Assembly (NCBI GenBank): GCA_964443025.1
Contig: CAYUEL010000002.1
Coordinates: 2,916 to 66,915 of the forward strand
Direction of reading: 5' to 3'
Source: an uncultured Gammaproteobacteria bacterium
GTDB lineage: Bacteria > Pseudomonadota > Gammaproteobacteria > JABCZS01
Length of the DNA: 64,000 nt
Made by a program: the position numbers and the translations under genes. This document shows positions 18,601 to 49,600 of the stretch, in pieces. Positions within the stretch are counted from its first letter, which is position 1; each line of letters starts with the position of its first letter. The notes below the pieces were generated by a model. The model did no database searches. It was given only the letters and a program-made list of their open reading frames with translations, and had not been told where the DNA came from.

Positions 18601-21600
18601 TCAACCCTTTAAGTGCGACACAAACTTGCCCCTGTTCATTGATTAAATCAAAATCATAACGCTGAGTTTCATTTTGACTGCCACTAGATTTTCGCTGTGC
18701 GTGAGCATAAACTTTGTTTGATAATGGGCTTAAGCATTGAATCTCTTCAATTGAATATGGCAAATAAAGTGTCGAATGATTTATTTTTTCAGATCTTAAT
18801 GCAAGAATTGAGTGTAAAGCGGCGTCAACTAAAACAGGATTAAACTCAAAATAACCATTATTTTCTGTGGTACTGATTTCTGATAGTGACTCTTGTTCAT
18901 TAAAAATGACCTTTTGAATTGTTTTAAAAGACTCTCCATAATGAATCCCCATTTTGTGGTATTGCGCATACAATGAATCTGGGGTCAAATTTTTTGTGCA
19001 GCGACTTTCAATCGCAGATAAATCAACAAATTTACTACTTTCAATTGAAGCGAGAATCACGTGGCCCTCGCTAAAAATGAGTCCGGTATTGTCTTTGATC
19101 TCATACACAATTTCATCACTGGATAGTGGATGTAGATGAATCATCACAGTTGTGGATTGAGTGACTCTAATCGGACGTGTCCAAGTAATATTTTTAAAAA
19201 CACCAATTAAGCCAGCAGTTGAGAGTGTCACTGCAGCACGCGCCATTTCGATATGACAGACACCCGGCAACACTGGAGTTGTGTTAATCACATGGTCACG
19301 CAAAAATAATTCATGACTGTAAAATGTAGTTTCAAAGGCTTGGCTAGCCAGTGTTGAAATATTTTTATCGATAAGAGGATGTAATTTTTGAACATCTTTT
19401 TCATGCTTGACGCCGTCAACCCAATAACGCTCTTTAGCAAATGGATAAGTTGGCAAAGAAATTCTCTTTGGCATTGGTGTTGATGTGTAAAGCTGCTTCC
19501 ATTCGATAGGATAACCTTGAACCCATAATTCTGATAATTTTTCAAACTTTCTTTTACCAACCCAGATATTTACCAATTGAGAAAAGTCTTCATCTTGACC
19601 TAATAAATCCATGGATGGATTAAATTGTAAAGTATTCCCAAAATAATAATGTTGTATTGAGGTATGCTGATCTTCTGCAATTTTTTGCAAATGATCGCAA
19701 AACGTTTTATGATCATAGGTGAGGAAAGCCATTCGATATTCCATGGCCTCTCGCCCTATTTGCAGCGTATATGCTAAATCACTTAATGAGACCGCTTGAT
19801 TTTCCTTCACGAACTTTAATAATAGTTCTGCGTAGCTTTTTAAACTCTCTGGCGTTTTAGCAGATAACACCATCAAGTAAGGACCTTCCGTTATACTTTC
19901 TCCTCGCATGTCCACATACTCTTCAACAACTACATGCGCATTCGAACCCCCAGCACCAAACGAACTCACACCCGCAACCCGCGGATACTCTATTCCGTTA
20001 ATCACGGGCCGATTCCAAGATGTAAGCTCTCGTTGCACCTTAAATGGCGTTGCCGTAAAATCAATATGAGGATTTAATTCTTCAGCATGAATCGATGGCA
20101 CCAGCTCTTGATGCTGCATTTGCAATAACACTTTAGTCACACCCGCAATACCTGCAGCTGATTCGCAATGCCCAATATTCGATTTCGCTGAACCAATTGC
20201 ACAATATTGCCTTTCCTGCGCCTCTTCATAAGCACGTGTTAATCCCGCAATTTCAATCGGGTCTCCCAATTGAGTGCCAGTCCCATGTGCTTCAACATAA
20301 CTTACATGCCGTGGGTTAACTTTTGCTTCTGCTAACGCTTGTTGAACCACATGCGCTTGTGCGTTAGGATTAGGGACTGTATAACCGTTCGTTTTCCCGC
20401 CATGATTAATCGCACTGCCTTTAATCACCGCGTAAATGTGGTCTCTATCTTCGATCGCAGTAGCTAATGGCTTAAGTACAACACAACCCACCCCTTCACC
20501 AGGAATGTAACCATCCCCACCTTTACCAAAACTTTCACATCGACCCTGGCTGGAAATAAAATTATTTTGACTGAGTAAAATATATTTATTCGGATGAATG
20601 CTAATATTCACACCACCTGCAATCGCCATTTGGCAATGCCCTGCTTTTAACGCTTGGCAAGCTAAGTGAATGGTCGTAAGTGATGATGAACACATGGTAT
20701 CCAATGCCATACTAGGACCATTAAAGTCACAGACATAAGAAACTCGATTAGCAATGCTGGCCGGGTTACCACCCACACCTTGCAACATGGGTGCTCCATA
20801 TAAAGGGTACTCTTCATACATAACGCCCACATAAACACCCACATTCCCAGCAATCTTCGAGTTTTTTAAACTCTCACGCGTATAACCACTGTCTTCTAAT
20901 GCGTGCCAAGCACTTTGTAAAAACAGACGCTCTTGCGGGTCCATCAACTCCGCTTCACGTGGAGAAATATTAAAAAATAATGGATCAAACTCATCCACCC
21001 CTTCAATAAATCCACCCCATTTGCTTTTAATACTGGATTCATAATCATACATATTCCAATACGTAGGTGGAATCGTGGTAATGCAATTTTTTCCAGTTTT
21101 TAAATGATGCCAAAAATCAGATAAAGTCGGCGATTGAGGATAGCGTCCACTCAAACCAATGATCGCAATATCCATCGTGGCTGACTTTGAAGCCATTGGA
21201 ATAAAGCGCGAAGCCTGAGGCAATAATACAGAGTGCATGACTTCAAGGCTTTTCACCGGTTGCTGAATATTTAAAATCTGAGTTAACTTAGCATGATGGT
21301 GCTTAATTAAATAATCAGAAAGCTCCAGCAAAGTCTGGTACTCAAAAAATAATGTCTTGGGTAATACACCAAATTGCTCTTCTAGCATGCCTGTCAACTT
21401 CAGAACCATAATAGAATCAATGCCAAGATTTTCCATCTTTGCATTTTCATTGATTTTTTCTAATTTAATTTTTAAGCTCTCTGCAAGACTCCTTTTTAAA
21501 TAACTCACTGTGTATTTTTTTAACTCAAAATCATTCGTTTGCGAATGTTGTTGAATAGGTTCAGATATCAAGTTTTGCACGGGGGGATGATGCTTGAATT

Positions 21601-24600
21601 CAGAAAGATTTGAAATCCAATACGATTCTTTTGCAAAAGCATAAGTGGGTAGGGACATCCTGTATGGCTTGTGCTCAGAATAAAATTGCTCCCAAGGAAT
21701 TGTATGGCCTTGGCACCACAGCTTTCCAATTTCTTGCTCAGATAAGGAAAACAAATCAGATTGAATTTGATTTGATTCATGTTCTATTTCATTAACAGCA
21801 GCTTTATTTAAATCAGCTATCAATCCATCAATATTTTTGGCATAAAATACGGCGCGATATTCATAATGATCCCTTCCCACCTGCAAGGTATAAGCAAGAT
21901 TTTTTAATTGAATTTCAGTTTTATGTTGACTTAAAAATTGTTGTAATTGATGAATCGATTCAATGGCTTGTTCTTTAGTTTTAGCCGAAACAGGAACAAT
22001 ATGTATTTTATCTTCTACTTTATTCTCTAAGGCTACATTTTCAATATATTCTTCAAGCACAATGTGTGCGTTAACTCCACCAAAACCAAAACTACTTACT
22101 CCAGCGCGCCGAGGCCATTCTTTGCCTTCTTTTGTTTTTATCCTCTTCCAAGGCTGGGTTTTCTGGATGAGGTAAAAAGGAGATTGCTCTAACTGAATAT
22201 ATTCATTTACCTGCTCGCTGTATAAACTTTTTGGCAATGTTTGATACTTCATTGCCAGCAACACTTTGATAAGACCCGCCACGCCTGCAGCCAATTCCAA
22301 ATGACCAATATTGGTTTTTACAGAACCCAAGCCACAATAAGGGTGAGATTCAACACTCTGTTGCTCTTGAGATAGTTCTGAAAACGCTTTTTTAAGACCA
22401 TTGATCTCGACCGGATCGCCAATTGGTGTTCCCGTTCCATGTGTTTCAATGTATGTAATGGAGTTGATAGGTACTTTAGCAGCTCGGTAAGCCTGTTTGA
22501 TTAATTCTGCTTGCGCATTGGCATTGGGCGCTGTGAGTGAATTTGCTCGACCTCCATGATTTTCAGCACTAGCCTTAATAACTGCATAAATATGATCATG
22601 GTCTTTTTCTGCTAAATCAAGGCGTTTCAGTAATAATATCCCGACACCCTCGCCCCTCACATATCCATCCGCATTGCTAGAAAATGTTTTACACTTTCCT
22701 TCTGGGCTTAACATGCCTGCTTTTGCAAAGCTTAGATGCGCTTCACTGGATAAAAGTGTATTGACACCACCTACAATCGCATATTGGCATAAACCACTTT
22801 TTATCGATTCAACACCTCGGTGAATAGCTACCAATGAACTTGAGCACGCTGTTTCGATGGGTTCACTTGGGCCATGCAGATTCAAAAAATAGGAAATTCG
22901 GCTACTGCCGATCGATGGAGTGATTGCAGAAGCAGTGTATCCTTCAACAGGCACATGATTAAAAACACGTTGTTGATAGCCTGTTGAAGCGGTTCCAATA
23001 AAAACGCTAGTTTGTGAGCCCCACAAAGATTTTAAAGCATAACCTGCATCATAAACTGCAGCACATGCAAACTGCATGAGTAATCGTTGCTGAGGGTCCA
23101 TGTATTCCGCCTCAGCGGGTGAAATACCGAAAAATGCCGGATCAAATTCATGAACACAGTCAATAAACCCGCCTTTTTTAAATTTTTCATCTATAGAAAT
23201 AAAATCAATTCGATCAGAAGGTGCCTTCGTGATGCAGTCAAATTCTTGTATTAAATTTTGCCAAAACTCAGCGACATTACTTGCGCGCGGGAATGTTCCA
23301 CTAATTCCGATAATAGCAACATCTGCTGGTGAGAAATCTTGTTCAATTTCAACTGGTAATTTTTCTACATCTACAACATGAGTTGGCAAACGATCGTCTT
23401 TAATTTGTGTCATCAAATAATCTCTAAAATTATTTAATGTGGGATATTCAAAGAAAATGGTCGGCATAATATTTAGTGAATACTGTTGATTAACCACATT
23501 CGCAAGTTCAGTCAGCGTAATTGAGTCCATGCCAAACGCACTAACTTCCTCATCAAAGAAAATATCCTTCTCAGAAACATTTAAAATTTTACACGTTGAA
23601 GTGGTTAGGAACTGTTGGATTGACTGCTTAGAATCAAGTGATGAAGTTTCAGCTCGCTTATTTACGAGTTCTCTTGTTGTAAATGACTGAATTACGCAAC
23701 ACACATTACCCTCTTGACCGCATATCAGAATATCATATTTTTTAACAGTCCCCGAAGATTCAGGGGATAATTTTGTATAAATAAATCCATGCTCTGGAAT
23801 TTTTGTTAATTGATGAATTTTAGTTACTGCAAAAGGCAAACTTGGACTAGGATTTTCTAGAGTCAATTTTGCATTTAAGCCTATGATGCTTTGAAACGCA
23901 GCATCCATCACACTAGGGTGGATTACAAAAGTATTTTGTGTCTCAGAGGGTGGTAAATGAAATTCAGCCAAACTTTCGTTTCCATTCACCCAAAATTCTG
24001 TAATACATTTGAAATGTTTACCATAATGAATCTGCTGATCAGAAAACATTTGATAGATTTTTTCGTGTGCCAGGGTAAAACGAGAGTCTTGCTTTAATTG
24101 ATTTATGTTGACCTTTTCTTCACCATGAGTTTGATTCAAAAACTCAATAAAACCTGTTGCATTGATTTTTTTCGGCGTATCGCGACAAGCGACTTCAAAG
24201 AAATATTTCCCTTCTTTAAGATGTAAACGAATATCCACCGCAACAGAATCATCCAAACAGACAATAGGCGCAAGAAACACTAAGTGGTTAATGCTAAAAG
24301 AAGAATCAGGTTGAATGCCACGTGCAGCATGGCTTGCAAGATCAATATAAGCTGCACCAGGCAGCATTTTTTTTTGATCAATAATATGCTCTGCCAAAAT
24401 AAATTCATTCTGATGAAAATAACCTTGGTAGTGATAACGATCCAGCTGTGACACGTGAGACGTCAAGGTAAACCTTTGTGGTTCATTTATTTCATCACTC
24501 ATCCAACAGCGCTCGCCTGCAAATGGATATACAGGTAATGAGATAAAGGTTGCGCCGTCATGTTTAATTTGGTTTTTCCAATCGACCGCCTTGCCATTGA

Positions 24601-39400: not shown

Positions 39401-39799
39401 CGAATTTTTGAGTCTAGAAGGTTTATAGCCTGCATCTTCAAAACATTCCCAAGCCAGCTCCAGCAAAATCCGCTGCTGCGGGTCCATCATCTTGGCTTCT
39501 CTTGGGGAAATATCAAAAAAATACTCAGCAAATTGATCAATATCATTCAAGAAACCACCTTGATCAATACCTGGATATTGGTGTTGAATATCAAGCCCCT
39601 CAGGCCATTGCCACCGCTCTTTGGGCAGGGGTTGTATGGTCTGCTTATTTTCCTTTAATAGCGACCAGAGGCTTCCAAGCGTATGACAATTACCGGGCAA
39701 GCGAAACGAAGTGCCGATAATCGCGACATCGTTTTTTCTTATAAAATATTCTTTAATACTTCTCACAACTACGCCACCCCAACCTTCCGGATACGACAA
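27467..39799 (-). CDS. Trans-AT PKS megasynthase 1 (4110 aa): KS(Cys->Ser)-ACP | KS-KR-ACP | KS-ACP | KS-KR-ACP | KS
   Basis: The first KS reads DTASSSALV, with codon TCT at 39227-39229 where Cys is expected. It is followed by four canonical KS domains (DTACSSSL, DTMCSSSL, DTACSSSA, DTACSSSL), all with HGTGT. KR motifs are YLITGGFGALG and FLITGGLGGLG. ACP serines are DMGFSS, GMDS, GLDS and GIDS. The gene ends with a KS whose module continues in the next protein as a split module. The apparent start is TTG at 39797-39799, 8 nt after the map stop. Confidence 0.9.
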   Translation of the reverse strand: MSYPEGWGGVVVRSIKEYFIRKNDVAIIGTSFRLPGNCHTLGSLWSLLKENKQTIQPLPKERWQWPEGLDIQHQYPGIDQGGFLNDIDQFAEYFFDISPREAKMMDPQQRILLELAWECFEDAGYKPSRLKNSNTGVYIGLGQSGYHQLFTQENNLDLSYLAQTQGLFLASNRISHYFNLVGPSLSIDTASSSALVAICQAVQALQAGHCTLAIAGGINLICSMQQSLAYYSAGMLSKDAQCKSFDQEANGYVRSEGGGLLILKPLKHAIHDKDFIYGVIKGAGHNHGGKTHSLTTPSVDGEARLIEQVYQRSGIQAESLSYIETHGSGTRVGDPIETQALIQAFKRLTGNHFKTMKCGLGSIKSQLGHLESASGLAGILKILAAFKYQELPMTSNHKQLNQQIDLTDTPFYIVNQWTPWHASSRRAPLRAGVSSFGLGGVNAHIILEKFKNSPKKNNASRKEKVELFIFSAKSKEDLNRYLKAFSHFLDVKQDANAACLESIAYSLQTTREEMQERVAYLAGSAKELKHKIDQTLRNEIKKYDYYINSATTKTTDSTEIYKFIQKRQLGEIAKLWVQGQEIYWESLYKNQPINKCKLPTYQFSHTRYWVSQANQQESHLKKPEVTAESFAKHVIEIIANILGVPSSEIDRKEYLSDMGFSSLEYRELSHQLNEKFQLNTTPVLFFERQNIEDIIARLSAQEKPRLLHSSLNNHSTEVAIIGIGALLPDAETFSQFWENLCNQKISIRQISEERPGHTQFLALDPVLQKAGFIEGVEEFDAKFFNISPLEAELMDPQQRKLLQVAWHTFEEAGVALHQASNRSVGVFIGAMHSDYQELLAEEGVLREAYTSTGLAHSMLANKISFFFNLQGPSEVIDTACSSSLVALHRALLSLNQGECEMALVGGVNLILSPRTSYAFQQSGMLSPDARCYTFDEHANGYVRGEGIVTLLLKPLHKAIQEKNQIYGVIKGSAVGHTGHGHSLTAPSATSQAHIIASALRRSNIDATSVSYIEAHGTGTALGDPIEIEGLKHNYAQSKCAIGTVKANLGHLEAAAGLAGVLKVILSFKHHTIPGNPNLTQINRYIDLSTTHMHLVQDNEKWSVQYPRRAGVSSFGFGGVGAHVILEEHQTQHESLFIPHVSNIFILSAKNNQSLGNIVHQFYQFVSQLLSKENQTIQLEDITYTLQIGREAMPKRLCIVANDLKELKHLLQEAMLSDQKLLGTINSSFKETIESWMKGGSIEWRQFYNGQQGKLISLPGYAFLTDKYWFNQSLNEKSELRIYIKSHVEVKTEPVVNDKVHFDSKMIFIIEANQILDETYETVQAYLQSKIKTAECVVLRTTEDNIALNYQNHLIAIFNRLKSKISKSSGRVSPILIQVVFPFFNEYQVYIGFSAFLKALHIEFPAIKVQIIGLDRKTKLEELRHRLDQSALMRDVEIMYSSEKRYITHWKEKPLLKKMPWKNQGVYLITGGFGALGYALATEITNCIQNGKIIICGRTALNENIQKKIQSLEKNNCKINYYSLDISDQFAINQMIVDIVSRHHGLSGIIHCAGMIKDNYIYNKSSDEFPQVLNPKVLGLYYLDKATKDLPLDFIILFSSFVGCMGNAGQSDYAAANAFMNQYAHYRNEQVKKNQRFGRTSSISWPLWESGGMNVTPEVEMHFKENLGMLPLEFSKGMESLYGALGIEDDEVIVAFGNQSIFSQKLNESLQCEMAQPVQSHLHSRNKKQNLSEIEDQIQSLFSKYSKVNLSDIHSDIEFSEFGMDSIMVININRELEKIYPNLSKTVLYECKTIRELADYLFNNYNQHPDQVQDTESERSDPRSTEIAIVGIAGRFPGANSIDEFCVNLMNGKDCITEIPLERWNFNEHFTPNKEEAINQNKIYSKWGGFIDNFNKFDSLFFNISPKEALQIDPHERLFLETAWHALEDAGIDVKKISGTNVGVFAGITKNGFEFLKNETDGFYPRTSFSSVANRVSFFFNLKGPSLAIDTMCSSSLVAVHEACQNILRGDCEIALAGGVNLYLHPSNYQYLCQMGMLSTTAENRSFGGNADGFVPGEGVGIAVLKPLSAAIRDGNHIYGIIKSSAVNHGGRTSGYTVPNPNAQRDLVAKAIGEAQISADAISYIEAHGTGTFLGDPIEITALTQAFQESTQQKNYCAIGSIKSNIGHLEAAAGIAGLIKILLQIKFKKKFPSIHSAIVNPNINFAESPFYLQHHLDSWIVKNNRRIAGVSSFGAGGVNAHVIVEEYRSKDDHVLDDGREFPCIFSCGYEEGLKNYAQALLTHLEFMRINHIHLSMRDIAYTLCCCRVPQKYRAVVYANNAKSLETKLKKYVSGEVDYTTHTELSPLSTAWLNGSVVDWRSLFEEKPGKSVSLPGYPFKKNLIELSTKHEKRAVVEKISLINPENFSENLVSAHQKCTTFSEIKIDNEQIAPPLESKKSQATDYSLMMEQNQFFDQSQTYAAIKCFLKTELAKSLFINEEEIDEKLELINLGLDSIVGIEFSKRIKSNFGIHFPATRIYDYPTIEKLAQFLLNETKNKINHVSDVKQESEVSHNNHNKIAIIGVSGRFPGAESIDEFWDNLKNGVNSITEVSNIRWDVNQFYDANKKNKNKVYCKWIGELSHIDEFDPLFFNLSPAEAECMDPQQRLFLQEAWKAFEDANYTPEKLSQIQCGSYIGVMQNDYWQNVLSSKEHSGLAQTATGNSNAILAARMAYLLNLKGPAIAVDTACSSSAVATHLACQALRLNEIDMALAGGVTLYLGESNYFRMCDAGMLSEDGQCFTFDRRANGFVPGEAVVAVVLKRLDDAIHDHDHIYGVITGSGINQDGKTNGITAPSTQSQIELIQSVYKKNEIDPHSISYIEAHGTGTKLGDPIELEALTTVYQKEGVKDSSCAIGSVKTNVGHTSAAAGLTSLVKILLCLQHKELVPSINYQTANEHIDFKNSPFYVSTQHQSWITHSGLRKAALSAFGYSGTNAHIVIEEYSEKRKGLPSISIQKPIEFLFSAQSVPSLIKNVKRFLKFIKSQEQIAQEHLPHIALTLRFCRDLMKYKIVFTASDKPELINRIQLFLENTPEESSQINMQASLSHLDTGISFKKFRLPTYCFAKNKYWISQKQIEPQPSAQLSLNKTDFDTVSLGVKFLDEQNEKNNESHYDVVLAMAKWEREIPSNSDLKNQQETSEYLFINFQQDSLAALVNQLQNSCKEFYFNINQAKAPIEIVTAIFNYLKEKLSQKTHQMVCAIVVPNQNIHLYAPLAGLIKSMQIENPKIKTKLIALDQAILTNPSIAAETLRNEMQQNSQHQFVRYDENHARWVQTLNRYASAHLRTDLFSNRVFLITGGLGGLGKKVAEYISQFKNTKIILCGRKAPAIDDQQWMSSLILHGAHVIYEKCDITRADEVQNLIDSIMKNHDSLSGIFHCAGVLKDSLLINKTVSEFEDVLSPKLLGLHWLDTYTKDIALNFVVLFSSVASIKGNIGQVDYAAANAYLDGYVEYRDHLVAKGKRSGRTIAINWPLWAEGGMTLEPHHEDWQLRRTGLSVLRSKLGLEILHGILTLNQSGQIMVAYGVMDKIAQYFNIAVDKQPSANQTSGLIVKNDQNKIRTEVLEIISHMLKIDASQLDFNDNFSEYGIDSILMMRLLNELEKKYQIIMDPNSIIMHPTINQLSEYLINSAGVEQTTENNFESITVKTSNHASQNKVAIIGYTGILPQSPTLEDFWVNLTTGRDLITNPPTDRWGKFSVEDKHITYGGYLNDISSFDAERFAIDDSNALILDPQQRVLLELADDLLKRAGYIDKIKDTNTVVYIGAKENNYVRNNYKEIPKNVIKNTIVSYIGNIIAARISNFYNLRGASKTIDTACSSSLVAMHDACQSILHGESELAIAGGIFLLIDPFAHIGFNNANVLSPDGKSYVFDKRANGFVLSEGAGLVLLKNYNAAIRDGDRIIATILASAINNDGKTMGLTVPNQEGQKEVIHRALSLANINPEQISYYEAHGTGTLLGDPIEVKAASDVYRNYTSKNQFCAIGSVKSNIGHTMMAAGVASIIKILLSMEHNMIPPTIHCESPHPRFNFDKSPFYPIVSTEEWKSRVNRTIAAVSSFGFGGTNSHMILEKMGD

Positions 39800-39807
39800 C
39801 TCATCTC

Positions 39808-40653
39808 TTATTTGCGCAATGCACGCGCTGTCGTCAATAATTCTTGTACTTCCGTACTGTATTCTTTTTTAAATTGTTCAAACGCTTCTTTCTCTTCGTC
39901 CCTTAAAGTTAACACCTCAAAACAAGAGTCAGTCACTAAAATTGTGTGTTCCCATTGAGCTGAAAGTTGATTATCTTTTGTGACGACCGTCCATTGATCA
40001 TCTAGTACTTTGACATCAGGAGATCCCTGATTGATCATCGGTTCTATCGTAAAAGTCATCCCTGTTTTTAGTCTTTTACCAGTGCCTGCTTGGCCGACGT
40101 GAGGGACTCGGAGATCTTCATGCATTTTTTTACCTATGCCATGACCACAGTAATCTGTCACCACAGAATAACGGTACGCTTTTGCATGCTTGTCAATTGC
40201 AAAACCAATATCACCGATGGTCGCACCTGGTTTTACAGCAAGAATGCCTCGATATAAGCATTGCAAAGAAATATCCACCAGTTGTTTTGCCTGTGGAGAA
40301 ACGGAATCCACACAGACCATGACGCTACTGTCGCCATAATAGCCGTCTTTTCTCACTGTAATATCAAGATTAACAATATCGCCTTTGAGCAAAGGTTTTC
40401 GATTTGGCCAACCATGGCACACCACATGATTGACAGAAGTATTCACAGAATGCGGGAAACCATATTGACCTTTGCTTCCGGGTTCTGCTTTTAATGTGTT
40501 AACAATATAGTCTTCGCAAAATTCATCAATTTCAAGAGTGGTGATTCCAGGTTTTAAAATGCGTTTCGCAGCTTCTAATACTTTGGCCGTCAGCATCCCC
40601 GCAGCACGCATTTTCATAATCTCAGGAAGCATTTTAAACACTGTAAACTCCAT
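39808..40653 (-). CDS. map: Methionine aminopeptidase type I (paralog 1), first gene of the PKS operon
   Basis: It aligns end to end with E. coli Map. Metal ligands are conserved (DIVNLD-ITV D/D, HGIG His, FTIEP Glu, QWEHT Glu). ATG at 40651-40653 with GAGG 4 nt upstream. The stop TAA sits 8 nt before the PKS start. Confidence 0.9.
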   Translation of the reverse strand: MEFTVFKMLPEIMKMRAAGMLTAKVLEAAKRILKPGITTLEIDEFCEDYIVNTLKAEPGSKGQYGFPHSVNTSVNHVVCHGWPNRKPLLKGDIVNLDITVRKDGYYGDSSVMVCVDSVSPQAKQLVDISLQCLYRGILAVKPGATIGDIGFAIDKHAKAYRYSVVTDYCGHGIGKKMHEDLRVPHVGQAGTGKRLKTGMTFTIEPMINQGSPDVKVLDDQWTVVTKDNQLSAQWEHTILVTDSCFEVLTLRDEEKEAFEQFKKEYSTEVQELLTTARALRK

Positions 40654-40776: not shown

Positions 40777-41217
40777 ATGTTTTTACCTAGTCAGTATTTT
40801 ATAGGCACCCATGGAAATTCTACGGTTCAGTCTGAATTGCACCCACCGAAACAAAGCACTCCGCTTTGGAGAGCTTTTCGCGCCAATCAGGTTACACCCG
40901 AACAGACAATCACGACAAATAATGAGCAACTTGCCAAAAAACATACGCATATAAAAATACCCGAAGCGCTATTATGCAGCGTCACTCAGCAACTTATGGA
41001 TACACCGGTTGCCATTAAAAAAAATAATTATGAGGTTGAGTTTGTAGATCAACTGGTGATCACAAAAAATAATAATATTAATCCATTTACTAATTTGGAG
41101 CTCACAGCAGAAGAAATTTCAAAAGAGCAGAGTGTAGAAAAATTAAACGAGATTAATGAATTTAAAGCGCAGCATTTTAGATCCTGCATAAATATGAGAA
41201 AAATGTTTTGTTTATGA
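40777..41217 (+). CDS. Hypothetical protein (146 aa), first gene of the hyp-PPTase-AT operon
   Basis: Strong SD AAGGAGG lies 7 nt upstream of ATG 40777. The gene overlaps the PPTase start by 10 nt. No recognisable motifs. Confidence 0.5.
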   Translation: MFLPSQYFIGTHGNSTVQSELHPPKQSTPLWRAFRANQVTPEQTITTNNEQLAKKHTHIKIPEALLCSVTQQLMDTPVAIKKNNYEVEFVDQLVITKNNNINPFTNLELTAEEISKEQSVEKLNEINEFKAQHFRSCINMRKMFCL

Positions 41218-41933
41218 ACAAATATCAAACCTCCTTATCTTTGCGGCGTACAGAAGTTCACCTTCATTCTACATTATTTATTGATTCACCCGGGCAGGAA
41301 TATTTATTTGGTCATTACACAGACTTTCTCAGCACTGAAGAAGAACTATATTTTAGAAAATTAAAATACGAGAAAAGACAATACAGTTATCTGCTAGGAC
41401 GATATTGTGCTAAAAAAGCACTTTCTATGTGGCCATTTCACCAAAATCCCAAAACATGCACTATTTCATCCGGTATATTTTCTCAACCCATCCTGACAAC
41501 ACCCGATGTGAGAAATATCCAAACTTGTATAACACATTCTTCATTTCTAGGGGGCGCTATTGCATTTCCAGAGCAACATCCGATGGGACTTGATCTAGAG
41601 CCTATTAATCCTGACAAAGAAGAAATTTTAAATAGTCAAATGACAACACACGAGGTGGAGAAATTTTCTGAATTGCCTTTGGTCAGCATCGATCGGATGA
41701 CTTTGCTTTGGGTCATGAAAGAAGCATTATCAAAAGTGCTTCGCACTGGATTAACTATTCCATTTGAACTTTTAGAAATAGAATCCATAACAATAGATGG
41801 AGATTATATTTACAGTACATATAAAAATTTTCCGCAATATCAAGCGTGTTCTTTTCAAATACGAGATCATTTTTGTGCGCTAGCATATCCAAGAAAAACC
41901 ACTTTAATGTTTGACCAAAAACATCATGAATAA
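41208..41933 (+). CDS. Sfp-type 4'-phosphopantetheinyl transferase
   Basis: GLDLEPI (the GxD(L/I)E motif) and WVMKEALSKVLRTGL (the W..KEA..K motif). It overlaps both neighbouring genes. Confidence 0.75.
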   Translation: MFMNKYQTSLSLRRTEVHLHSTLFIDSPGQEYLFGHYTDFLSTEEELYFRKLKYEKRQYSYLLGRYCAKKALSMWPFHQNPKTCTISSGIFSQPILTTPDVRNIQTCITHSSFLGGAIAFPEQHPMGLDLEPINPDKEEILNSQMTTHEVEKFSELPLVSIDRMTLLWVMKEALSKVLRTGLTIPFELLEIESITIDGDYIYSTYKNFPQYQACSFQIRDHFCALAYPRKTTLMFDQKHHE

Positions 41934-42873
41934 AATATTTTTATTTCCAGGTCAAGGCTGTCAATATTATCACATGGGCAAACAACTCTATCAGGATTCT
42001 TCTGTATTTAAGGAATGGATTGATTATGGTGATCGTTTATGTCTGCAATTTATAAAAAAATCAGTCTGGGATACGGTCTGCCATCCACAATTTAAACCCA
42101 GCGATCCGCTATTGTGCATTCTTACAACACATCCCGCTATTTTTATCTTTGAATATGCAATGGTGCAATTTTTAGAAAGTAAAGGCATCACCCCAGATAG
42201 TGTTCTCGGTTCAAGCTTGGGAGAATTTGCAGCATCCGTGTGCGCAGAAAGAATAAGCTATCAACACGCATTAGAAGGCATTATTCATCAAGCACAAACC
42301 ATTTCGCATCTATGCGAACAAGGTGGAATGCTCGCAATACTTTCTCAGGTGGAACTGTACGAGACTGAAAAAACACTGTTTGAAAACAGCGAGATTGCAT
42401 CAGTAAATTTTAATGATGGTTTTGTCGTATCTGGTATACATTCGCGGTTACAACACATTCAAAATGAACTAAAGTCAAAAAAAATTCCATGTCAGTTATT
42501 GCCTGTTTTATATGCATTTCACTCAAGACATATTGAATACGCCAAAGATTTGCATCTTAATTTTTTAACTCAAATCCCGATGAAAAGGGCGCAGATCCCC
42601 TATATTTCAACTCTTGATCACCCTAAAGATCATCATCCAGAAAATGCATCTTATTTCTGGAGGGTTGCGCGCGAGGCGATGAACATTAAAAAAACCATTG
42701 CTGATTTAGAGAAAAACATGAGTTCACTATATATTGATTTAGGACCATCAGGGACATTTGCTAATATCGTTAAATATAATTTACAACCCCATTCTCAATC
42801 CAAAACTGTGTGCACCATCAATCCCTATGAAAACAACCTTAAAAGTATTGAAAAATTATTGGCGCTCTTTTAA
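41911..42873 (+). CDS. Free-standing FabD-like acyltransferase / acyl hydrolase (second trans-AT)
   Basis: FPGQGCQ, nucleophile elbow GSSLGEF (Ser replaces the usual His of GHSxG), distal YAFHSRHI. Confidence 0.75.
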   Translation: MTKNIMNKIFLFPGQGCQYYHMGKQLYQDSSVFKEWIDYGDRLCLQFIKKSVWDTVCHPQFKPSDPLLCILTTHPAIFIFEYAMVQFLESKGITPDSVLGSSLGEFAASVCAERISYQHALEGIIHQAQTISHLCEQGGMLAILSQVELYETEKTLFENSEIASVNFNDGFVVSGIHSRLQHIQNELKSKKIPCQLLPVLYAFHSRHIEYAKDLHLNFLTQIPMKRAQIPYISTLDHPKDHHPENASYFWRVAREAMNIKKTIADLEKNMSSLYIDLGPSGTFANIVKYNLQPHSQSKTVCTINPYENNLKSIEKLLALF

Positions 42874-43608
42874 GCGTTCAATATTTTTTAGCACTTCATC
42901 TTGAAAAAAAGTTACTTCATGCATGGACAGTTCTCGCTCAATATATTGCTGTAAAGTGGGTAAAACCATTAAGCGAAAATGTTCTTTGAGTTTTAAGAGT
43001 GAAATACGTGGCTTATCTGCCATTTGATGTGCAACAGACATAGCCGACTCTACCACATCCGCTCGATCTAGCACTTCAATACCCAACTGTCTTGTTTTTA
43101 ATTCCTCACCATAAAAATTTTTTGCGGTATATAACATTTCCCGGCCAAGCGTTTCACCAAATACTTTTGGAATAATATAAGTAGAACCAAATCCTGGAGT
43201 AAATCCATAACTCATAAAGTTTGCACTATAAATGGATTGTCTCGCTAAAATAATCACATCGGCAAAACATCCCATGGCTAAACCACCGCCTAAAGCATGG
43301 CCCTGCATGGCGCTAATCACAGGAACAGCACAGTTGAGCAAAATATCATGAATTTTTAAATCAGTAAAATTGCATTTTTTTTCATAAATACTCAACAATT
43401 CTTCTTGTGTTCCACCGCAACAGAAATAGTTATCATATCCGTGCAGTACCACCACTTTAATCTGTTCATCTTGATTGATGTGCTGAAAAGCCAAAATAAG
43501 TCCTTTTCTAAGATCTAAAGAAAACATATTGTGATTTTCTCGATCTTCCATAGAGACTCGGGCAATATGCTTGTTCACATAGAGCTTAACAACATGATTT
43601 ATGTCCAT
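42856..43608 (-). CDS. Enoyl-CoA hydratase/crotonase family, beta-branching ECH (PksI-like decarboxylase)
   Basis: Crotonase fold (VVLHGYDNYFCCGGTQEEL, GHALGGGLAM). Last gene of the accessory minus-strand operon. Confidence 0.7.
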   Translation of the reverse strand: MDINHVVKLYVNKHIARVSMEDRENHNMFSLDLRKGLILAFQHINQDEQIKVVVLHGYDNYFCCGGTQEELLSIYEKKCNFTDLKIHDILLNCAVPVISAMQGHALGGGLAMGCFADVIILARQSIYSANFMSYGFTPGFGSTYIIPKVFGETLGREMLYTAKNFYGEELKTRQLGIEVLDRADVVESAMSVAHQMADKPRISLLKLKEHFRLMVLPTLQQYIERELSMHEVTFFQDEVLKNIERLKERQ

Positions 43609-44378
43609 GGTAATTTATCTTCTCGAATGTATTGAAGAATGGCAGATTGAACTTGCTTGTCTTTAATTATTTCACTGGCGGTATTAATTGCGATATTCTC
43701 CATGGCTTCATTCACAATCCATATTTGTCTAAAATAATTTTTAAGGTTTTTAATCGTATTGAATTTTAATAAACGTAAGCGATGCAAGTATTTTTCAATT
43801 ACGCGTTGCGGATCTTCGGCAATTTCATCAATTAAACCAATTTGTTTTGCATCTGCAGAAGAAAATGTGTGACTCATCAACGCCATTTTATACGTGTTTT
43901 GAAAACCAATTTTTCTAATTAGATAAGGCGCAACGCATGCAGGTAATAACCCCCACAACGCTTCAGGTAAACCAAACCGTGACTTTGTCGATGCCACAAC
44001 CAAATCGCTTACAGCAATAATCCCCATTCCCCCGCCAAGCACCACTCCATTCACTTGGCTAACCACAATCTTGGGTAAACAAGACAGGGTTTTAATCAGT
44101 TCCATGTATTTTTTAGACAATAAGACATTTGAATCGGTTTCCTGATTGATGATTTTATTTGCTGCATCAGCCAAATCTAAGCCAGTGCAAAAATAAGATT
44201 CATTTCCTTTGATAAGAATCACTTTATATTGCTCATTTTCTTCGAGTTGGTTTAGAACAAATAAAAGCTCATCTATTAGCGTTTCATTCATGCTGTTTTG
44301 ATTTTCAGCACGATTCATTGTGATTTGGTAAACATCACCTTTCTCGTCACATTGAATTGTTTTAAAATTTTTAATCAT
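43599..44378 (-). CDS. Enoyl-CoA hydratase/crotonase family, beta-branching ECH (PksH-like dehydratase)
   Basis: Crotonase fold (ILIKGNESYFCTGLDL, GVVLGGGMGI). It overlaps both neighbours. Confidence 0.7.
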   Translation of the reverse strand: MIKNFKTIQCDEKGDVYQITMNRAENQNSMNETLIDELLFVLNQLEENEQYKVILIKGNESYFCTGLDLADAANKIINQETDSNVLLSKKYMELIKTLSCLPKIVVSQVNGVVLGGGMGIIAVSDLVVASTKSRFGLPEALWGLLPACVAPYLIRKIGFQNTYKMALMSHTFSSADAKQIGLIDEIAEDPQRVIEKYLHRLRLLKFNTIKNLKNYFRQIWIVNEAMENIAINTASEIIKDKQVQSAILQYIREDKLPWT

Positions 44379-45636
44379 ATTTTTTAACTAAAATTGACGA
44401 GTTGATTCCACCAAACCCAAATGAATTTGACAAAGCATAAGAAACATTTTCCTGATCATTGAGATTAAATTTCCATGAGCAATCCTGAGAAAGTGGATTA
44501 ACCAGGTTTTTATTTTCATGAATATACCCTCCTCGCATTTGTAAAATCGTCGCAATGATTTCAACAACACCTGCCGAAAATAAACAATGACCTGTCAGCG
44601 ATTTTGTAGAGTTAATAAAAAGATTATGGATATGATGAGAAAATACACTCTTAATTGCATCGATCTCAGCTTGATCGCCAATAGTTGAGGAAGTTCCGTG
44701 TGCGTTTACATAATTGATTTCTTCAGGTTGAATTTTTGCTTCAAACATACACTTTCGCATTACTCGTTCTTCGCCTTGCTGATCAGGCTGGGTAGATTTA
44801 TTGCCATCTAGCAGAATAATTCCATGCACTAGTTGAGCCAGTGCCACTCCCCCTCGTTTTTCCATGGATTGCTTTGATTCTAAAATAAGACACCCTGTAC
44901 CTTGACCATAAATAAAACCTTCGCGTTGCTGATCAAAAGGACGGCACGCAAGCTCGGGTGTTTGGTAAAAACTTTTTCCACCCATTGCGCCGATCTGATC
45001 CATCGCTTGGATGGCTAACGGCGAAAGTTCTGATAAGGCGCCAATGACTAAGCAAACCTCTAATTTTCCGAATTGGATCAATTCCATCGCTTTGATAATT
45101 GCCACATTGCCACTTGCTGATGCACCGTTTGCTGCAAATCCTTGACCATGGATTGTCAATAGTTCGCTGATCGTTCCCACGTGATCGGTTTCAAGTGCAT
45201 GAATAGGATATTTAGGTGAAACAAATTGTGGTTTGCTTTGAAATTTTAAGTTCGCCTGGTATTGAAAATGTTGTAAGGTTTGATCAGCAGCCACTACAAT
45301 ACCGATTTGATCACTTTCAGGTGTTAAAGTCTCCAGGCCTGCCATGATCCATGCCTCGAGTGCAGTTAAAACAGAAGTTTGGACGGGCAATGGAGCCCTT
45401 GCTGAATCTTGTGCACGGTTTTGTATTTGCTCTTGAATTTTTGCAAATTGCCCTAAACGCTCAAGATAGGAAAATTCTTGTAGCGGCGCATAAACGGTTT
45501 TGATTTCATGATGATTAACCACTTCATGGTATTGTTTAAAATGCGTGATACCTCGACGCAAGGATTGATCAAAATCAGGAATGGTATTGCCATTAGAGGA
45601 TTGCACACCCATACCTGTGACATAAACCTCCTTCAA
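44371..45636 (-). CDS. Free-standing decarboxylating ketosynthase (KS-S, PksF/MupG-like) of the beta-branching cassette
   Basis: FabF-like. The active-site Cys is replaced by Ser (ANGASASGNVAI versus TACASG). Both His motifs are retained (NAHGTSST, TGHCLFSAG). Confidence 0.8.
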   Translation of the reverse strand: MKEVYVTGMGVQSSNGNTIPDFDQSLRRGITHFKQYHEVVNHHEIKTVYAPLQEFSYLERLGQFAKIQEQIQNRAQDSARAPLPVQTSVLTALEAWIMAGLETLTPESDQIGIVVAADQTLQHFQYQANLKFQSKPQFVSPKYPIHALETDHVGTISELLTIHGQGFAANGASASGNVAIIKAMELIQFGKLEVCLVIGALSELSPLAIQAMDQIGAMGGKSFYQTPELACRPFDQQREGFIYGQGTGCLILESKQSMEKRGGVALAQLVHGIILLDGNKSTQPDQQGEERVMRKCMFEAKIQPEEINYVNAHGTSSTIGDQAEIDAIKSVFSHHIHNLFINSTKSLTGHCLFSAGVVEIIATILQMRGGYIHENKNLVNPLSQDCSWKFNLNDQENVSYALSNSFGFGGINSSILVKKYD

Positions 45637-45908
45637 TTATGGATTCCTTCTTGAGAAATAAGTGTCACAAGCTCTTGAATAGTGTTTGCCTTGGTTAATT
45701 TCACAAGGGGGATGTTGAGTTCTAATTTTTCAAGCGTCAACATGATAATTTCCAAACGATCAACTGAGTTTGCACCTAAGTCTTGCAATGGACGATTAAA
45801 CTCAATTTCTGTCAATTGAGGAAACACACTCAAAATACTGTTTTTCAGTGCCGCAAGTACAATAGACTTTTCCATGTTACCTCCACTCATAAATTCGATG
45901 GAATTCAT
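45633..45908 (-). CDS. Discrete donor acyl carrier protein (AcpK-like)
   Basis: 91 aa with DLGANSVDRLEI (Ser attachment site). It lies between the KS-S and the HMG-CoA synthase homolog. Confidence 0.7.
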   Translation of the reverse strand: MNSIEFMSGGNMEKSIVLAALKNSILSVFPQLTEIEFNRPLQDLGANSVDRLEIIMLTLEKLELNIPLVKLTKANTIQELVTLISQEGIHN

Positions 45909-47136
45909 TAATTTCTTTCAAATAAAGGCGCTTTTCATTTAGTTTTGATAAATAACTATAAGGAATAACGTCACTATGAATTTGGACATTGCGAGTGCCG
46001 AATTTAACCATTTGGCTGGTACGCAGAATTTTTTCATAATCACTGATACTTAATTTAAATCGCTTAGATAAATGAGGTTCAATCTGCATCTGTTTGAGCG
46101 TTTGATGTGACTGCAACGTCACAATACCGCTATAAAATTCTGAGCAACATCCAGAGCCATATGAAAATATTCCTATACGTTTGGGTTTGTTGTACTCCCC
46201 ATTTTCTATCGTGCTGGCTAAAGATAAAAATACCGTTGCCCCCATAATATTACCAACGCGTTGACAATAATTGACCCCCGCTTCTACCCGTTGCGTATAA
46301 TCTTGTTCAATATCTTCCAATGGCATTTTGTAAAGCTTTCTCATCATGCTGCGATGTGCGCCTTTGACCATACCGCCGAACGGTGTATGAAATGACAAAT
46401 AGCCAAAACTCTGTAAATAATCTGCTCCTGAAACTTTGCGTTGGTAAGCTAGAAAAGCTTGTTCACAACAATCTAGATAAGAGCTCAACGATAAATCAGA
46501 GTCTCCTGCTTCACTGTCTGGTACAGGCCTACAAGTATCCATGACTTCATAACCATAGTATCCGTTGGCGCCCACATCCACATGAAAGACTTTGGGTTTT
46601 TCACTGACCAATAATGCAACTGCGCCAGCACCAGAGCTAGGTTCTGCGAATGACCATTCCATATTAATTACATCGCTACCGTCGACAACCATAAATCGAG
46701 AAATATCTGTTGCCACCACCAGTGCTTTTGCTCCCGGCGAAGTCTGCGATAAAATAAAATGAATCGCCATTTGAAATCCAGCTGTACCAGAATAACAGGC
46801 TTGTTTTATTTCGAACATTCGGCAATGTTTGCTTAAGCCCAAATAATCATGAATATAAGTGCTCATAGACTTGCCAAAATCAATACCAGATTCTGTGCAA
46901 GTAATTAATAACTCAATCTGATTTTTTTCTTCTGCAGTTAATTGATCAATCAAAGGTTTTGCCGCATTGACTGCAAATGTCACAGGATCTTCAAATGGTA
47001 GCGAAACTGATTTCTCTTTCATTAATAAATTTGAAAAGCGACCCATATTGAGATTTCGATATTCCGCAAGTTCGGTGACATCTAAAACTGCCGTGCCACC
47101 AAACACATTCATTGATTCAATTCCAACTGCAGGCAT
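45877..47136 (-). CDS. HMG-CoA synthase homolog (HCS, PksG-like) for polyketide beta-branching
   Basis: HMGS family. Active-site Cys context KQACYSGTAGFQ, plus EPSSGAGAVALLVS. Confidence 0.85.
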   Translation of the reverse strand: MPAVGIESMNVFGGTAVLDVTELAEYRNLNMGRFSNLLMKEKSVSLPFEDPVTFAVNAAKPLIDQLTAEEKNQIELLITCTESGIDFGKSMSTYIHDYLGLSKHCRMFEIKQACYSGTAGFQMAIHFILSQTSPGAKALVVATDISRFMVVDGSDVINMEWSFAEPSSGAGAVALLVSEKPKVFHVDVGANGYYGYEVMDTCRPVPDSEAGDSDLSLSSYLDCCEQAFLAYQRKVSGADYLQSFGYLSFHTPFGGMVKGAHRSMMRKLYKMPLEDIEQDYTQRVEAGVNYCQRVGNIMGATVFLSLASTIENGEYNKPKRIGIFSYGSGCCSEFYSGIVTLQSHQTLKQMQIEPHLSKRFKLSISDYEKILRTSQMVKFGTRNVQIHSDVIPYSYLSKLNEKRLYLKEINEFHRIYEWR

Positions 47137-47144
47137 AATTAACC

Positions 47145-48383
47145 TTATAAATTCGGATAAACAATTACTGTCTCATACCCATTTAATGTAGGCACTGATT
47201 TTCTTTTAAGAGAAGAATGAGGGCAGAGAGTCATATTGGGAAATGCTTCAAGAATCTTTTTAAATGCAATTTCCGCTTCTAATCGTGCAAGCGGCGCTCC
47301 TAAACAAAGATGAATGCCTCCACCAAACGCATAATGCTTGCCCTCCTTTCTTTCAACATTAAACATATGAGGGCAAGAAAATACTTCAGGATCACGATTG
47401 GCAGCCGCAATCATCAAGGATAATGTCTCACCTTTGGGTATAGTGATTCCATCAATTTCAGTTGTTTCAGCACATACTCGAGGCACTTCCGTAGCAGGGC
47501 TATCATACCTAAGCATTTCTTCTATGGCTTGCGGCATTAAATTCAAATTGTTTTTTAGCTTTTCAAATTGATCTGGGTTTTGCAATAATGCTACCATACC
47601 ATTACCCAATAGGTCCGTGGTCGTCACATTGCCAGCAACAATAAATATCACACAGGTAGTGATAATCTCTTCGACAGTTAAGTCTCCCATTTCTTGTTCA
47701 TGCGCATTAATCAAATTAGTCATAAAATCATCTTGCGGATTTTTTCTGCGATCAGCTATCATTTGTTTGAAATACTCACCCACTGCTAAGTGAGCAGCAA
47801 AAACTTTTTTCATGCCTTCTTCATCAATAGCAGGATCAACGGATTGAACAAGCTGATCGGACCACTCTTTAAATTGCTTATGTTGACCTTCTTCAATACC
47901 TAATACATAAGCCATCACGCGCGTGGGAAGTAAATATGAAAACTCAGCAATAAAATCAAACTGTGTTTTATGTTTAACGTTAGCAATGATTTCATCCACA
48001 ATGCTTTCAATGCGTTGACGAAAACATTCTATTTCTCTTGGATTAAATGCTTTGTAAAGAAGACTGCGTTGCCGGTGATGTTCTTGGCCATCCATGTCTA
48101 GTAAACCTAACGATCCAATTTGTTGGCCCATTTTCCAAGCAAAAGTATCTTCATTGGCATATTTTTGCCAATTTCTGACACAAACGGTCTTGTTATGAAA
48201 GATTTCACGAATGTAATTTGCCTTAGTGACCACAAAACGTTTTAATTCATCATCGACTAAGATTGGCGCGTGCTCTCTAAGTTCATCAAAAATTTCATGC
48301 ATGCCATCTCTAAATCGCTCATTTTGAGGAAATAAAGCACTTCCTTTTGGCAAATTTTTAGTTTTTACGTCCTTGATACTCAT
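47145..48383 (-). CDS. Cytochrome P450
   Basis: Heme loop FGGGIHLCLGAPLA, EMLRYD (ExxR). ATG 48381-48383 with AGGGA upstream. Confidence 0.9.
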   Translation of the reverse strand: MSIKDVKTKNLPKGSALFPQNERFRDGMHEIFDELREHAPILVDDELKRFVVTKANYIREIFHNKTVCVRNWQKYANEDTFAWKMGQQIGSLGLLDMDGQEHHRQRSLLYKAFNPREIECFRQRIESIVDEIIANVKHKTQFDFIAEFSYLLPTRVMAYVLGIEEGQHKQFKEWSDQLVQSVDPAIDEEGMKKVFAAHLAVGEYFKQMIADRRKNPQDDFMTNLINAHEQEMGDLTVEEIITTCVIFIVAGNVTTTDLLGNGMVALLQNPDQFEKLKNNLNLMPQAIEEMLRYDSPATEVPRVCAETTEIDGITIPKGETLSLMIAAANRDPEVFSCPHMFNVERKEGKHYAFGGGIHLCLGAPLARLEAEIAFKKILEAFPNMTLCPHSSLKRKSVPTLNGYETVIVYPNL

Positions 48384-48391
48384 ATGTATCC

Positions 48392-49600
48392 CTATCGAGT
48401 TGATAGTATAATTTTTTTGTATCCACTAAATGTGGGTACGGATTTTCGCTCTAGCGGTTCTGCCAGTTTCAAAACTGGAAATGCTTTTAGAATCTTTCCA
48501 AATGTAATTTCTATTTCCATGCGCGCTAAATGGACGCCCAAACAAAAATGAGCGCCACCACCAAAAGCTAAATGCGTAGATTCTTGCCTTTCAATATTGA
48601 ACTGATGGGGGCATTGATAAGCTTTCGGATCACGATTTACGCCTGCAAGATTGAGCGTCAACGTTTGCCCTTTGTCAATAGGAACACCTTCCACATTGAC
48701 TTTATCGTAACAAAAACGAGGAATTTCAGTAACTGGAGGATCAAATCGTAGCATCTCTTCAACTGCCAGGGGCATCAAATGGGGATTCGCGCGCAATTTT
48801 TCGAGCTGGTCGGGATTTTGTAACAATGCCACCATGCCATTGCCAATAAGATCTGCAGAGGTTATATTTCCAGCAACAATCAGCTGCAAACAAATCGTCG
48901 CCACTTCTTCTGAAGATAATTTTTCAACACCATCGCCATCATGAATCAGACGTGACATTAAATCATCTCGCCTTTCTAAGGTGCGAGCTTGTACGGTTTT
49001 ATTAAAATATTCGTTTAAGTTTGCATTGGCTGCTTTTGCCAGTTCAAACTTTTCAGGGGATACATCAGGATCACAAATATAAACCCATTCATCAGACCAT
49101 TGCTTAAATTTTGCTTGATCTTGTTTATCAACTCCTAAAATTTCAGCCATAATCATGGTCGGTAAAGGTGCGGCAATAGCTCGTATAAAATCAAACTTTT
49201 CTTGATCTTTGACCTGGTCAATCAGCTCATCCGCAATCGCTTCAAGTTTAGCTCTTAACGGTTCAACGGCTTTGGGTGTAAACGTTTTTGACACTAAGCT
49301 GCGAAGATGATGATGTTTTTCACCATCTTCATCTACCATTCCAAATTTACCATTGCGCGGAGATACAGTTTTCCCCCAAGTGCCTTCAGCGGCCACTTCC
49401 CAATCGCGCCCACAATGAGCTAGATCTTTAAATACTTTACGTGCAGCATCGTATGAAGTCACAACCCAACGTTGAAACACATTATCTTTATACACTGGGG
49501 CCACTTCTCGTATTTCATCTAGGACATCGTGCATACGATTGCGATAACGCTCATCTTGAGCAGTAAGTTGATTTCCTTCGGGTAGCTTTTTGTGGCTCAT
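48392..49600 (-). CDS. Cytochrome P450 (tandem paralog)
   Basis: Heme loop FGGGAHFCLGVHLA, EMLRFD. Likely start is ATG 49598-49600 (MSHKKL) with GAGAGG 5 nt upstream. The ORF extends to 49654. Confidence 0.9.
   Translation of the reverse strand: MSHKKLPEGNQLTAQDERYRNRMHDVLDEIREVAPVYKDNVFQRWVVTSYDAARKVFKDLAHCGRDWEVAAEGTWGKTVSPRNGKFGMVDEDGEKHHHLRSLVSKTFTPKAVEPLRAKLEAIADELIDQVKDQEKFDFIRAIAAPLPTMIMAEILGVDKQDQAKFKQWSDEWVYICDPDVSPEKFELAKAANANLNEYFNKTVQARTLERRDDLMSRLIHDGDGVEKLSSEEVATICLQLIVAGNITSADLIGNGMVALLQNPDQLEKLRANPHLMPLAVEEMLRFDPPVTEIPRFCYDKVNVEGVPIDKGQTLTLNLAGVNRDPKAYQCPHQFNIERQESTHLAFGGGAHFCLGVHLARMEIEITFGKILKAFPVLKLAEPLERKSVPTFSGYKKIILSTR

Follow-up and report, generated by a model that had tools for sequence, protein, structure and literature searches.

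Methionine Aminopeptidase Genes at the Head of the Biosynthetic Arrays

We analyzed a stretch of 64,000 nucleotides (hereafter the window) from an uncultured gammaproteobacterium (assembly GCA_964443025.1, contig CAYUEL010000002.1, positions 2,916 to 66,915). It carries a trans-acyltransferase (trans-AT) polyketide synthase (PKS) cluster together with two genes for type I methionine aminopeptidases (MetAPs), map-1 and map-2. An earlier note on this DNA had proposed that map-1 confers self-resistance, as a duplicate of the enzyme that the polyketide inhibits. The features on which this proposal turns are the following.

39808..40653, minus strand: map-1, 281 aa, ATG start, TAA stop at 39810-39808; intact type I MetAP gene, first gene of the PKS array
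39800..39807, minus strand: junction between map-1 and PKS-A, 8 nt (GAGATGAG) from the TAA stop to the TTG start; an AAGAG element overlaps the stop codon
27467..39799, minus strand: PKS-A, 4110 aa, with modules KS-ACP / KS-KR-ACP / KS-ACP / KS-KR-ACP / KS and no AT domain
40702-40675 and 40667-40640, minus strand: two matches to sigma-70-like promoters (consensus only) in the 123-nt divergent intergenic region upstream of map-1
52990..53844, minus strand: map-2, 284 aa; intact type I MetAP gene, first gene of the co-directional tailoring array

By profile and residues, both proteins fall within the type I MetAPs of MEROPS family M24A. Map-1 matched Pfam Peptidase_M24 (PF00557) end to end (E 1e-51) and the NCBIfam type I MetAP equivalog model TIGR00500 over its full length, with 283 bits for a cutoff of 171; the corresponding values for Map-2 were E 6e-53 and 294 bits. 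The metal ligands D97, D108, H171, E204 and E235, as well as the catalytic H79 and H178 (numbered as in the Escherichia coli Map), are kept in Map-1 and Map-2, and also in the MetAPs of the two related clusters described below (L087 and Archangium violaceum). Given the scores above the TIGR00500 cutoff and the intact ligands and histidines, Map-1 and Map-2 should be able to do the housekeeping job, and both look catalytically competent. Each also presents the CHGWP motif and an Asn at the position of Cys70. On these points of plain observation, metal ligands included, the alignment agrees with the earlier note.

Map-1 and Map-2 are 66% identical. A recent tandem duplication was rejected on this value and on the tree, where their sister grouping obtained a bootstrap of 1% and Map-2 paired at 96% with P0002, its closest relative, a metagenomic sequence found on contigs of at most 2.1 kb. 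Map-1 (39808-39890), Map-2 (52990-53070) and P0002 are extended at the C-terminus by about 25 aa (..F..F....EVQELL..AR..), and the motif of this extension is absent from the other clade members aligned, including the L087 Map. Taking as clade-conserved the columns that are at least 95% conserved in the accessory clade to which both proteins belong (see below), we found that Map-1 departs at 6 of 96 such columns (G116D, R124Q, T129S, R166T, P181L and G244C), for a clade mean of 0.7 deviations (sd 1.1), 2 in Map-2 and 1 in the L087 Map. These deviations would fit adaptive and relaxed evolution alike.

The arrangement described earlier, an intact type I MetAP gene that ends 8 nt before the TTG start of a 4110-aa trans-AT PKS, was confirmed with one caveat. 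The TTG codon (39799-39797) is merely the start of the longest open reading frame (ORF). An equally plausible start of PKS-A is the in-frame GTG at 39766, which follows GGAAGG/GGGGTGG and fits the N-terminus of the closest homologue. The gap between the two genes is therefore 8–41 nt, as either codon may be used. With both genes on the same strand and no terminator-like site seen in the junction, the linkage of map-1 to the PKS is operon-like, and the two are presumably co-transcribed. The number of sigma-70-like sites upstream of map-1 was not above that in shuffled sequence.

An Accessory Clade of Methionine Aminopeptidases

A database search yielded thousands of matches, the best 120 of which were 59–70% identical; besides the source contig, none was more than 70% identical. 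In alignments, these relatives share PGSKGQY, VNTS, CHG[W/M/V/I/F]P and a Met at 177. The changes C59S, Y62Q, H63Y, C70N and F177M (E. coli numbering), which amount to a remodelled S1 pocket, are common to all 135 other members compared of this group, hereafter the SQYxN clade.

The genomic context of map was sampled at 80 loci from species-representative genomes, found with Map-1 (best match, 65% identity) and scored for an adjacent rpsB. At 58 of the 80 loci, rpsB was divergently adjacent to map, and all 58 carry the signature [P/C/N]-Y-x-[F/Y]-C...F177. The signature of this housekeeping locus also includes CHGIP, where Map-1 and Map-2 instead read S-Q-Y-F-N...CHGWP...M177. Legionella and Legionellales metagenome-assembled genomes (MAGs) possess such rpsB-linked genes (L010, L031, L036, L050 and L056), with products 52–58% identical to Map-1. 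Copies of the Map-1 type (S-Q-Y-[F/Y]-N...M177) were never adjacent to rpsB among the sampled loci. The window holds no rpsB, and Map-1 and Map-2 do not match the housekeeping map locus. By signature and context, they are classified here as accessory paralogues and not as the housekeeping Map. Because the accessory clade was never found beside rpsB, while the housekeeping map genes of Legionella are rpsB-adjacent and belong to the other clade, a third, rpsB-linked housekeeping copy is likely to exist elsewhere in the source genome.

Accessory-type copies were found in Xenorhabdus, Legionella, Pseudoalteromonas, Psychrobacter, Sphingomonas, Asticcacaulis and a Bdellovibrionota MAG. None of the 80 sampled genome loci had a PKS beside map. 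Three contexts were inspected: in a Legionella-like MAG the accessory gene lies between ankyrin and MACPF genes, in L. adelaidensis it lies beside two-component system and ABC genes on an 88-kb plasmid (according to PLSDB), and in Xenorhabdus it lies between mutS and cstA. A map gene is carried in 426 records of the plasmid collection, and many of these plasmid genes (Acinetobacter, Klebsiella, Pseudoalteromonas, Psychrobacter) are annotated together with a "ParD-like family protein". Also, a 5.3-kb Legionella MAG contig (L002) holds both kinds of gene in convergent orientation, an accessory-type map at 3425-4159 (plus strand) and a housekeeping-type one at 5258-4533 (minus strand), the aligned segments being 374 nt apart.

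These comparisons bear on the residues that had been put forward as a sign of self-resistance. CHGWP and Asn70 occur throughout the clade, in neighbourhoods that were PKS-free where examined, and we reject them as resistance mutations. Pocket residues that look special in a single cluster can thus be a trait of a whole clade, which calls for caution in residue-based predictions of resistance. The analysis also draws attention to a large accessory MetAP clade that is structurally uncharacterized: the closest solved structure by sequence search was 4fo7, from Pseudomonas aeruginosa, an enzyme of the housekeeping type, and no member of the clade was among the matches.

Architecture of the Cluster and Its Flank

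The other genes of the cluster and of its right flank are arranged as follows.

12641..27466, minus strand: PKS-B, 4941 aa, with modules DH-ACP / KS-DH-ACP / KS-ACP / KS-DH-KR-ACP / KS-?-KR-ACP; gap of 0 nt to PKS-A
11563..12711, minus strand: luciferase-like monooxygenase
6840..11558, minus strand: PKS-C, 1572 aa, a terminal module KS-FMO (Baeyer-Villiger-type)-ACP-TE
4592..6823, minus strand: discrete AT-ER (trans-acting acyltransferase and enoyl reductase)
2588..4585, minus strand: ABC transporter, last gene of the PKS array and a possible exporter
40777..42873, plus strand: divergent operon with a U-box protein, an Sfp-type phosphopantetheinyl transferase (PPTase) and a discrete AT (41911-42873)
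42856..49654, minus strand: tailoring genes, namely ECH, ECH, KS0, ACP and HMGS (a beta-branching cassette), then P450a and P450b
48392-49654, minus strand: P450b, the marker that defines the cluster family
49682..52894, minus strand: 1070-aa protein, between map-2 and P450b, whose C-terminal half is a nucleotidyltransferase of the PolyA_pol/CCA-adding type
55912-61275: right flank, with a PIN_2 toxin, ArdA, an antirestriction protein and a type IV secretion system (T4SS) coupling protein of the TrwB/TraD type

The array headed by map-1 thus comprises seven genes on the minus strand over about 38 kb, with all gaps of at most 16 nt, in the order map-1, PKS-A, PKS-B, luciferase-like monooxygenase, PKS-C, AT-ER and ABC transporter. 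Read from its longest ORF, the monooxygenase gene would begin 71 nt inside the 3′ end of PKS-B (12641-12711); its true start is probably further downstream. The tailoring array reads map-2, the 1070-aa protein, P450b, P450a, HMGS, ACP, KS0, ECH and ECH. The domain search of PKS-A, PKS-B and PKS-C detected 10 KS domains, RhiE-like/CurL-like docking linkers and no match to Acyl_transf_1. The label of trans-AT PKS given earlier to the system is correct, since KS modules without AT are accompanied by a discrete AT, the AT-ER and the HMGS/ACP/KS0/ECH/ECH cassette. No condensation, adenylation or other nonribosomal peptide synthetase (NRPS) domain was recognized in any cluster protein. A bengamide-type cluster was rejected for want of an NRPS module. 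The legioliulin cluster, in which ammonia-lyase and CoA-ligase starter genes are expected, was rejected as well, as neither was present among the annotated proteins.

Two other genes of the cluster deserve mention. The U-box protein (40777-41217, plus strand), which heads the PPTase/AT operon and is divergent from map-1, has a eukaryote-like domain (24.5 bits for a cutoff of 21.4) and is an odd companion for biosynthetic genes. The N-terminal 580 aa of the 1070-aa protein gave no Pfam match, and none of the related clusters L087, L174 and L175 encodes a counterpart; its possible roles include those of a second resistance or target gene and of a Legionella effector. As for the right flank, its gene content suggests that the biosynthetic gene cluster (BGC) probably lies on or beside a conjugative element; a megablast search of this flank against the plasmid collection gave no match.

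Related Clusters in Other Hosts

The cluster family was defined by orthologues of P450b. Its bound is sharp: 16 proteins, that of the window included, reach 60% identity or more, a single one follows at 52% and the rest are at most 43% identical. Besides those in the clusters described below, the P450b orthologues include P0246, P0249, P0253, P0256 and, from Herbaspirillum, P0258. No relatives came out of a first metagenome scan with the P450b alignment.

The best homologue of the N-terminus of PKS-A (54% identity) is found on L087, a 23-kb low-GC metagenome contig. Its genes are AT-ER, HMGS, ACP, KS0, ECH, ECH, P450 and then a 279-aa Peptidase_M24 protein directly upstream of the PKS, and its proteins are 44–70% identical to those of the window. 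The L087 Map scores 311 bits against TIGR00500 and falls in another subclade of the SQYxN clade than Map-1 and Map-2. Its nearest relative, P0049 (84% identical), ends 62 nt before a contig break.

The second relative is chromosomal. In the complete genome of Archangium violaceum (L174, CP069396.1, 7152278-7173498), a P450b orthologue 72% identical to ours is followed by a 258-aa Peptidase_M24 protein, AT-ER, AT, ECH, ECH, KS0, ACP, HMGS and a PKS containing KS-FMO. The Archangium Map scores 313 bits against TIGR00500, shares 40% identity with Map-1 and Map-2 and does not have the SQYxN signature. Of 53 columns without variation in 48 proteobacterial sequences, it departs at 16 (C78V, T99A, T202A and Q233H among the changes), a count that is confounded by phylogenetic distance. 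Because this protein is only 40% identical and lies outside the clade while P450b, HMGS and AT-ER are 72, 69 and 57% identical to those of the window, the Archangium MetAP was evidently recruited separately, from a different MetAP lineage. The MetAP genes of the cluster family are accordingly assigned to at least two unrelated lineages. That the Archangium cluster holds a MetAP of another origin suggests that selection favours a MetAP gene in this cluster.

The AT-ER of the window is 58% identical to its counterpart in L087 and 54% identical to that of L175, a further member of the family. The GC content of the contigs that carry the family is 0.67 for the myxobacterial chromosome and 0.37–0.42 for the Legionellales-like contigs. 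The occurrence of one family in Archangium and in Legionellales-like contigs, at 57–72% identity, implies that the cluster family moved between phyla.

Altogether, a MetAP gene lies within one gene of P450b in three of the five family members (window, L087 and L174). For comparison, a background set was assembled from 80 metagenomic loci anchored on an HMGS 62–70% identical to that of the window and presenting the usual trans-AT components; 44 of them are at least 10 kb long. No MetAP gene was within reach at any of the 80 loci (0/44 for those of at least 10 kb). With the window excluded, the family has a MetAP in 2 of 4 members vs. 0 of 44 in the background (hypergeometric p ~0.005, computed by hand).

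Probable Self-Resistance and Competing Explanations

The explanation that we consider probable is that Map-1 and Map-2 are catalytically competent accessory MetAPs, kept in a mobile trans-AT cluster as self-resistance (bypass) enzymes. The polyketide of the cluster would inhibit MetAP, whether the rpsB-linked housekeeping enzyme of the producer or that of competitors or of an amoebal host. As a map gene heads each of the two main operons, an insensitive MetAP would be made whenever the biosynthetic genes are expressed, and N-terminal methionine excision would thus be kept running in the producer. MetAP would then be the target of the cluster product, and Map-1 and Map-2 would be insensitive to it. 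The proposal of self-resistance by target duplication made in the earlier note consequently stands in part: it gains from the linkage, from the recurrence in L087 and Archangium, from the absence of MetAP at all 80 background loci, from the membership of a non-housekeeping clade and from the precedent of MetAP genes in other BGCs, and it loses the argument that had been drawn from the residues.

Several observations weigh against self-resistance. The accessory clade has many members, most of them with no BGC in the vicinity (about 25 genome loci, the three inspected contexts and the L. adelaidensis plasmid); since it is so common outside BGCs, carrying a map gene of the SQYxN clade is not diagnostic by itself. 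When the copies were aligned for substitutions in the S1 and S1′ pockets, as had been suggested earlier, the pocket changes proved to be clade-wide, and none of the substitutions confined to the cluster copies could be linked to the pockets of the active site. Two members of the family show no map gene: in L090, which is about 72% identical to L087, the gap between P450b and the PKS is 361 nt and holds no map (a partial view, on a 5.2-kb contig), and in L175 (P450b 61% identical) none is present in a 21-kb view that ends inside the first PKS. Finally, the ABC transporter of the cluster could suffice for self-protection, and it could contribute to self-protection under any of the explanations considered here.

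The spread of the clade outside BGCs, its plasmid-borne member in L. adelaidensis along with the 426 plasmid records of map, the ArdA, antirestriction, PIN toxin and T4SS coupling protein genes of the right flank, and the two relatives without a visible map would all suit a different account. In this one, the accessory map genes are hitch-hiking cargo of a mobile island that also carries the PKS, and have no functional link to its product. We hold this to be unlikely, as it sits poorly with two copies, just 66% identical, that each head a biosynthetic operon with minimal spacing, with a MetAP again beside P450b in L087 and in the chromosomal cluster of Archangium (there from a different lineage), and with 0/80 other trans-AT loci carrying a MetAP. 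That same figure of 0/80 tells against a role in support of the pathway, since the synthases of those HMGS/trans-AT clusters are equally large. Under this account, the product does not target MetAP, and the enzymes supply extra excision capacity or process proteins of the cluster, such as the giant synthases or the P450. Both enzymes do appear to be fully active, their genes are positioned for co-expression, and the accessory clade evidently has a general use independent of BGCs. The recruitment of two unrelated MetAP lineages to one cluster family would nevertheless be left unexplained, and a MetAP dedicated to a PKS pathway is, to our knowledge, without precedent; the chances of this account seem small to us.

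Still less credence is given to the idea that the two M24 enzymes are biosynthetic hydrolases whose substrate is an intermediate of the pathway and not a protein; they might, for instance, cleave off a protecting group (amino-acyl or methionyl) or a prodrug moiety. In favour of this idea, hydrolases other than MetAP, such as creatinase, prolidase and ectoine hydrolase, share the M24 fold and gave weak profile matches, and Map-1 shows accelerated change at conserved sites. In the assembly line, however, neither an NRPS module nor a domain for amino-acid activation is present, both proteins reach the equivalog level of the type I MetAP model, well above its cutoff, with a full MetAP active site, and their pocket residues are those of clade members without a BGC. 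This explanation is thus very improbable.

Returning to self-resistance, we also put forward a broader and speculative extension, which we consider unlikely. The family, which occurs in Legionellales as well as in a myxobacterium and which in the window borders on genes of conjugative transfer, would make a pure polyketide inhibitor of MetAP. The SQYxN clade, with its remodelled S1 pocket and one plasmid-borne occurrence, may circulate as stand-alone immunity to natural MetAP inhibitors, the cluster copies being its original or most specialized members. A pure-polyketide chemotype of MetAP inhibitor was not found described for bacteria in the literature searched.

As a target, MetAP has been validated for antibacterial, antiparasitic and anticancer use, but few classes of natural inhibitor are known. 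The conserved MetAP gene in this trans-AT PKS family leads to a concrete prediction of bioactivity for an uncharacterized polyketide, and we regard the cluster as a credible, if unproven, lead to a new natural MetAP inhibitor. The Archangium violaceum member, from a named species with a complete genome, could make the compound accessible through culture, provided that the strain can be obtained.

Comparison With Known Systems

Neither a MetAP in a trans-AT PKS cluster nor one in a Legionella BGC was found described in the literature searched, and the surveys of Legionella BGCs that were searched mention no aminopeptidase. Outside these groups, about 1.2 million BGCs have been searched for in-cluster MetAP homologues as markers of self-resistance, which yielded 35 candidates, with an estimate that MetAP-bearing BGCs represent at most 1 in 20,000–80,000 (Liu et al., 2022; bioRxiv 10.1101/2022.06.11.495772). 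In both cases where a MetAP-containing cluster was expressed, the extracts inhibited HsMetAP1, and mtpF, the MetAP of the metapeptin cluster, proved insensitive to metapeptin B (bioRxiv 10.1101/2022.06.11.495772). The metapeptin cluster (mtpF, ZYM301) and the other BGCs of that study resemble ours in having a type I MetAP in the BGC or in operon with it, read as self-resistance. Metapeptin differs in that it is a cyclic depsipeptide made by an NRPS from soil cosmids, for which MetAP inhibition and insensitivity were shown, whereas the cluster of the window is a pure trans-AT PKS in a Legionella-like mobile region and has two MetAPs.

Before the metapeptins, bengamides were the sole bacterial class of MetAP inhibitors known (bioRxiv 10.1101/2022.06.11.495772). 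According to the account given of it in the same preprint, the bengamide cluster of Myxococcus virescens (Wenzel et al., 2015) carries a MetAP self-resistance gene (bioRxiv 10.1101/2022.06.11.495772). It is thus a further bacterial pathway to a MetAP inhibitor with a MetAP gene of its own, and its host is a myxobacterium, as is the Archangium host of the present family. Bengamides need a lysine-derived caprolactam unit, introduced by an NRPS module, whereas no NRPS domain is present in the cluster of the window.

The fumagillin cluster is listed with MetAP as resistant target (PMC10320164). In Aspergillus fumigatus, as proposed here for the window, a paralogue of the target lies inside the cluster. 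The fumagillin system differs in being fungal, with a meroterpenoid pathway and a type II MetAP. Among proteobacterial trans-AT PKS clusters, target-duplicate resistance genes are represented by mupM (isoleucyl-tRNA synthetase, mupirocin) and batG (FabI, kalimantacin), which the map genes of the window resemble as putative target duplicates, with a different target enzyme. By signature and tree, Map-1 and Map-2 belong to the accessory SQYxN MetAPs, the others of which sit alone in non-BGC contexts at the loci sampled. Cluster-encoded MetAP self-resistance is already documented for fumagillin, bengamide and metapeptin, and what the window adds is a specific lead for genome mining and no new principle.

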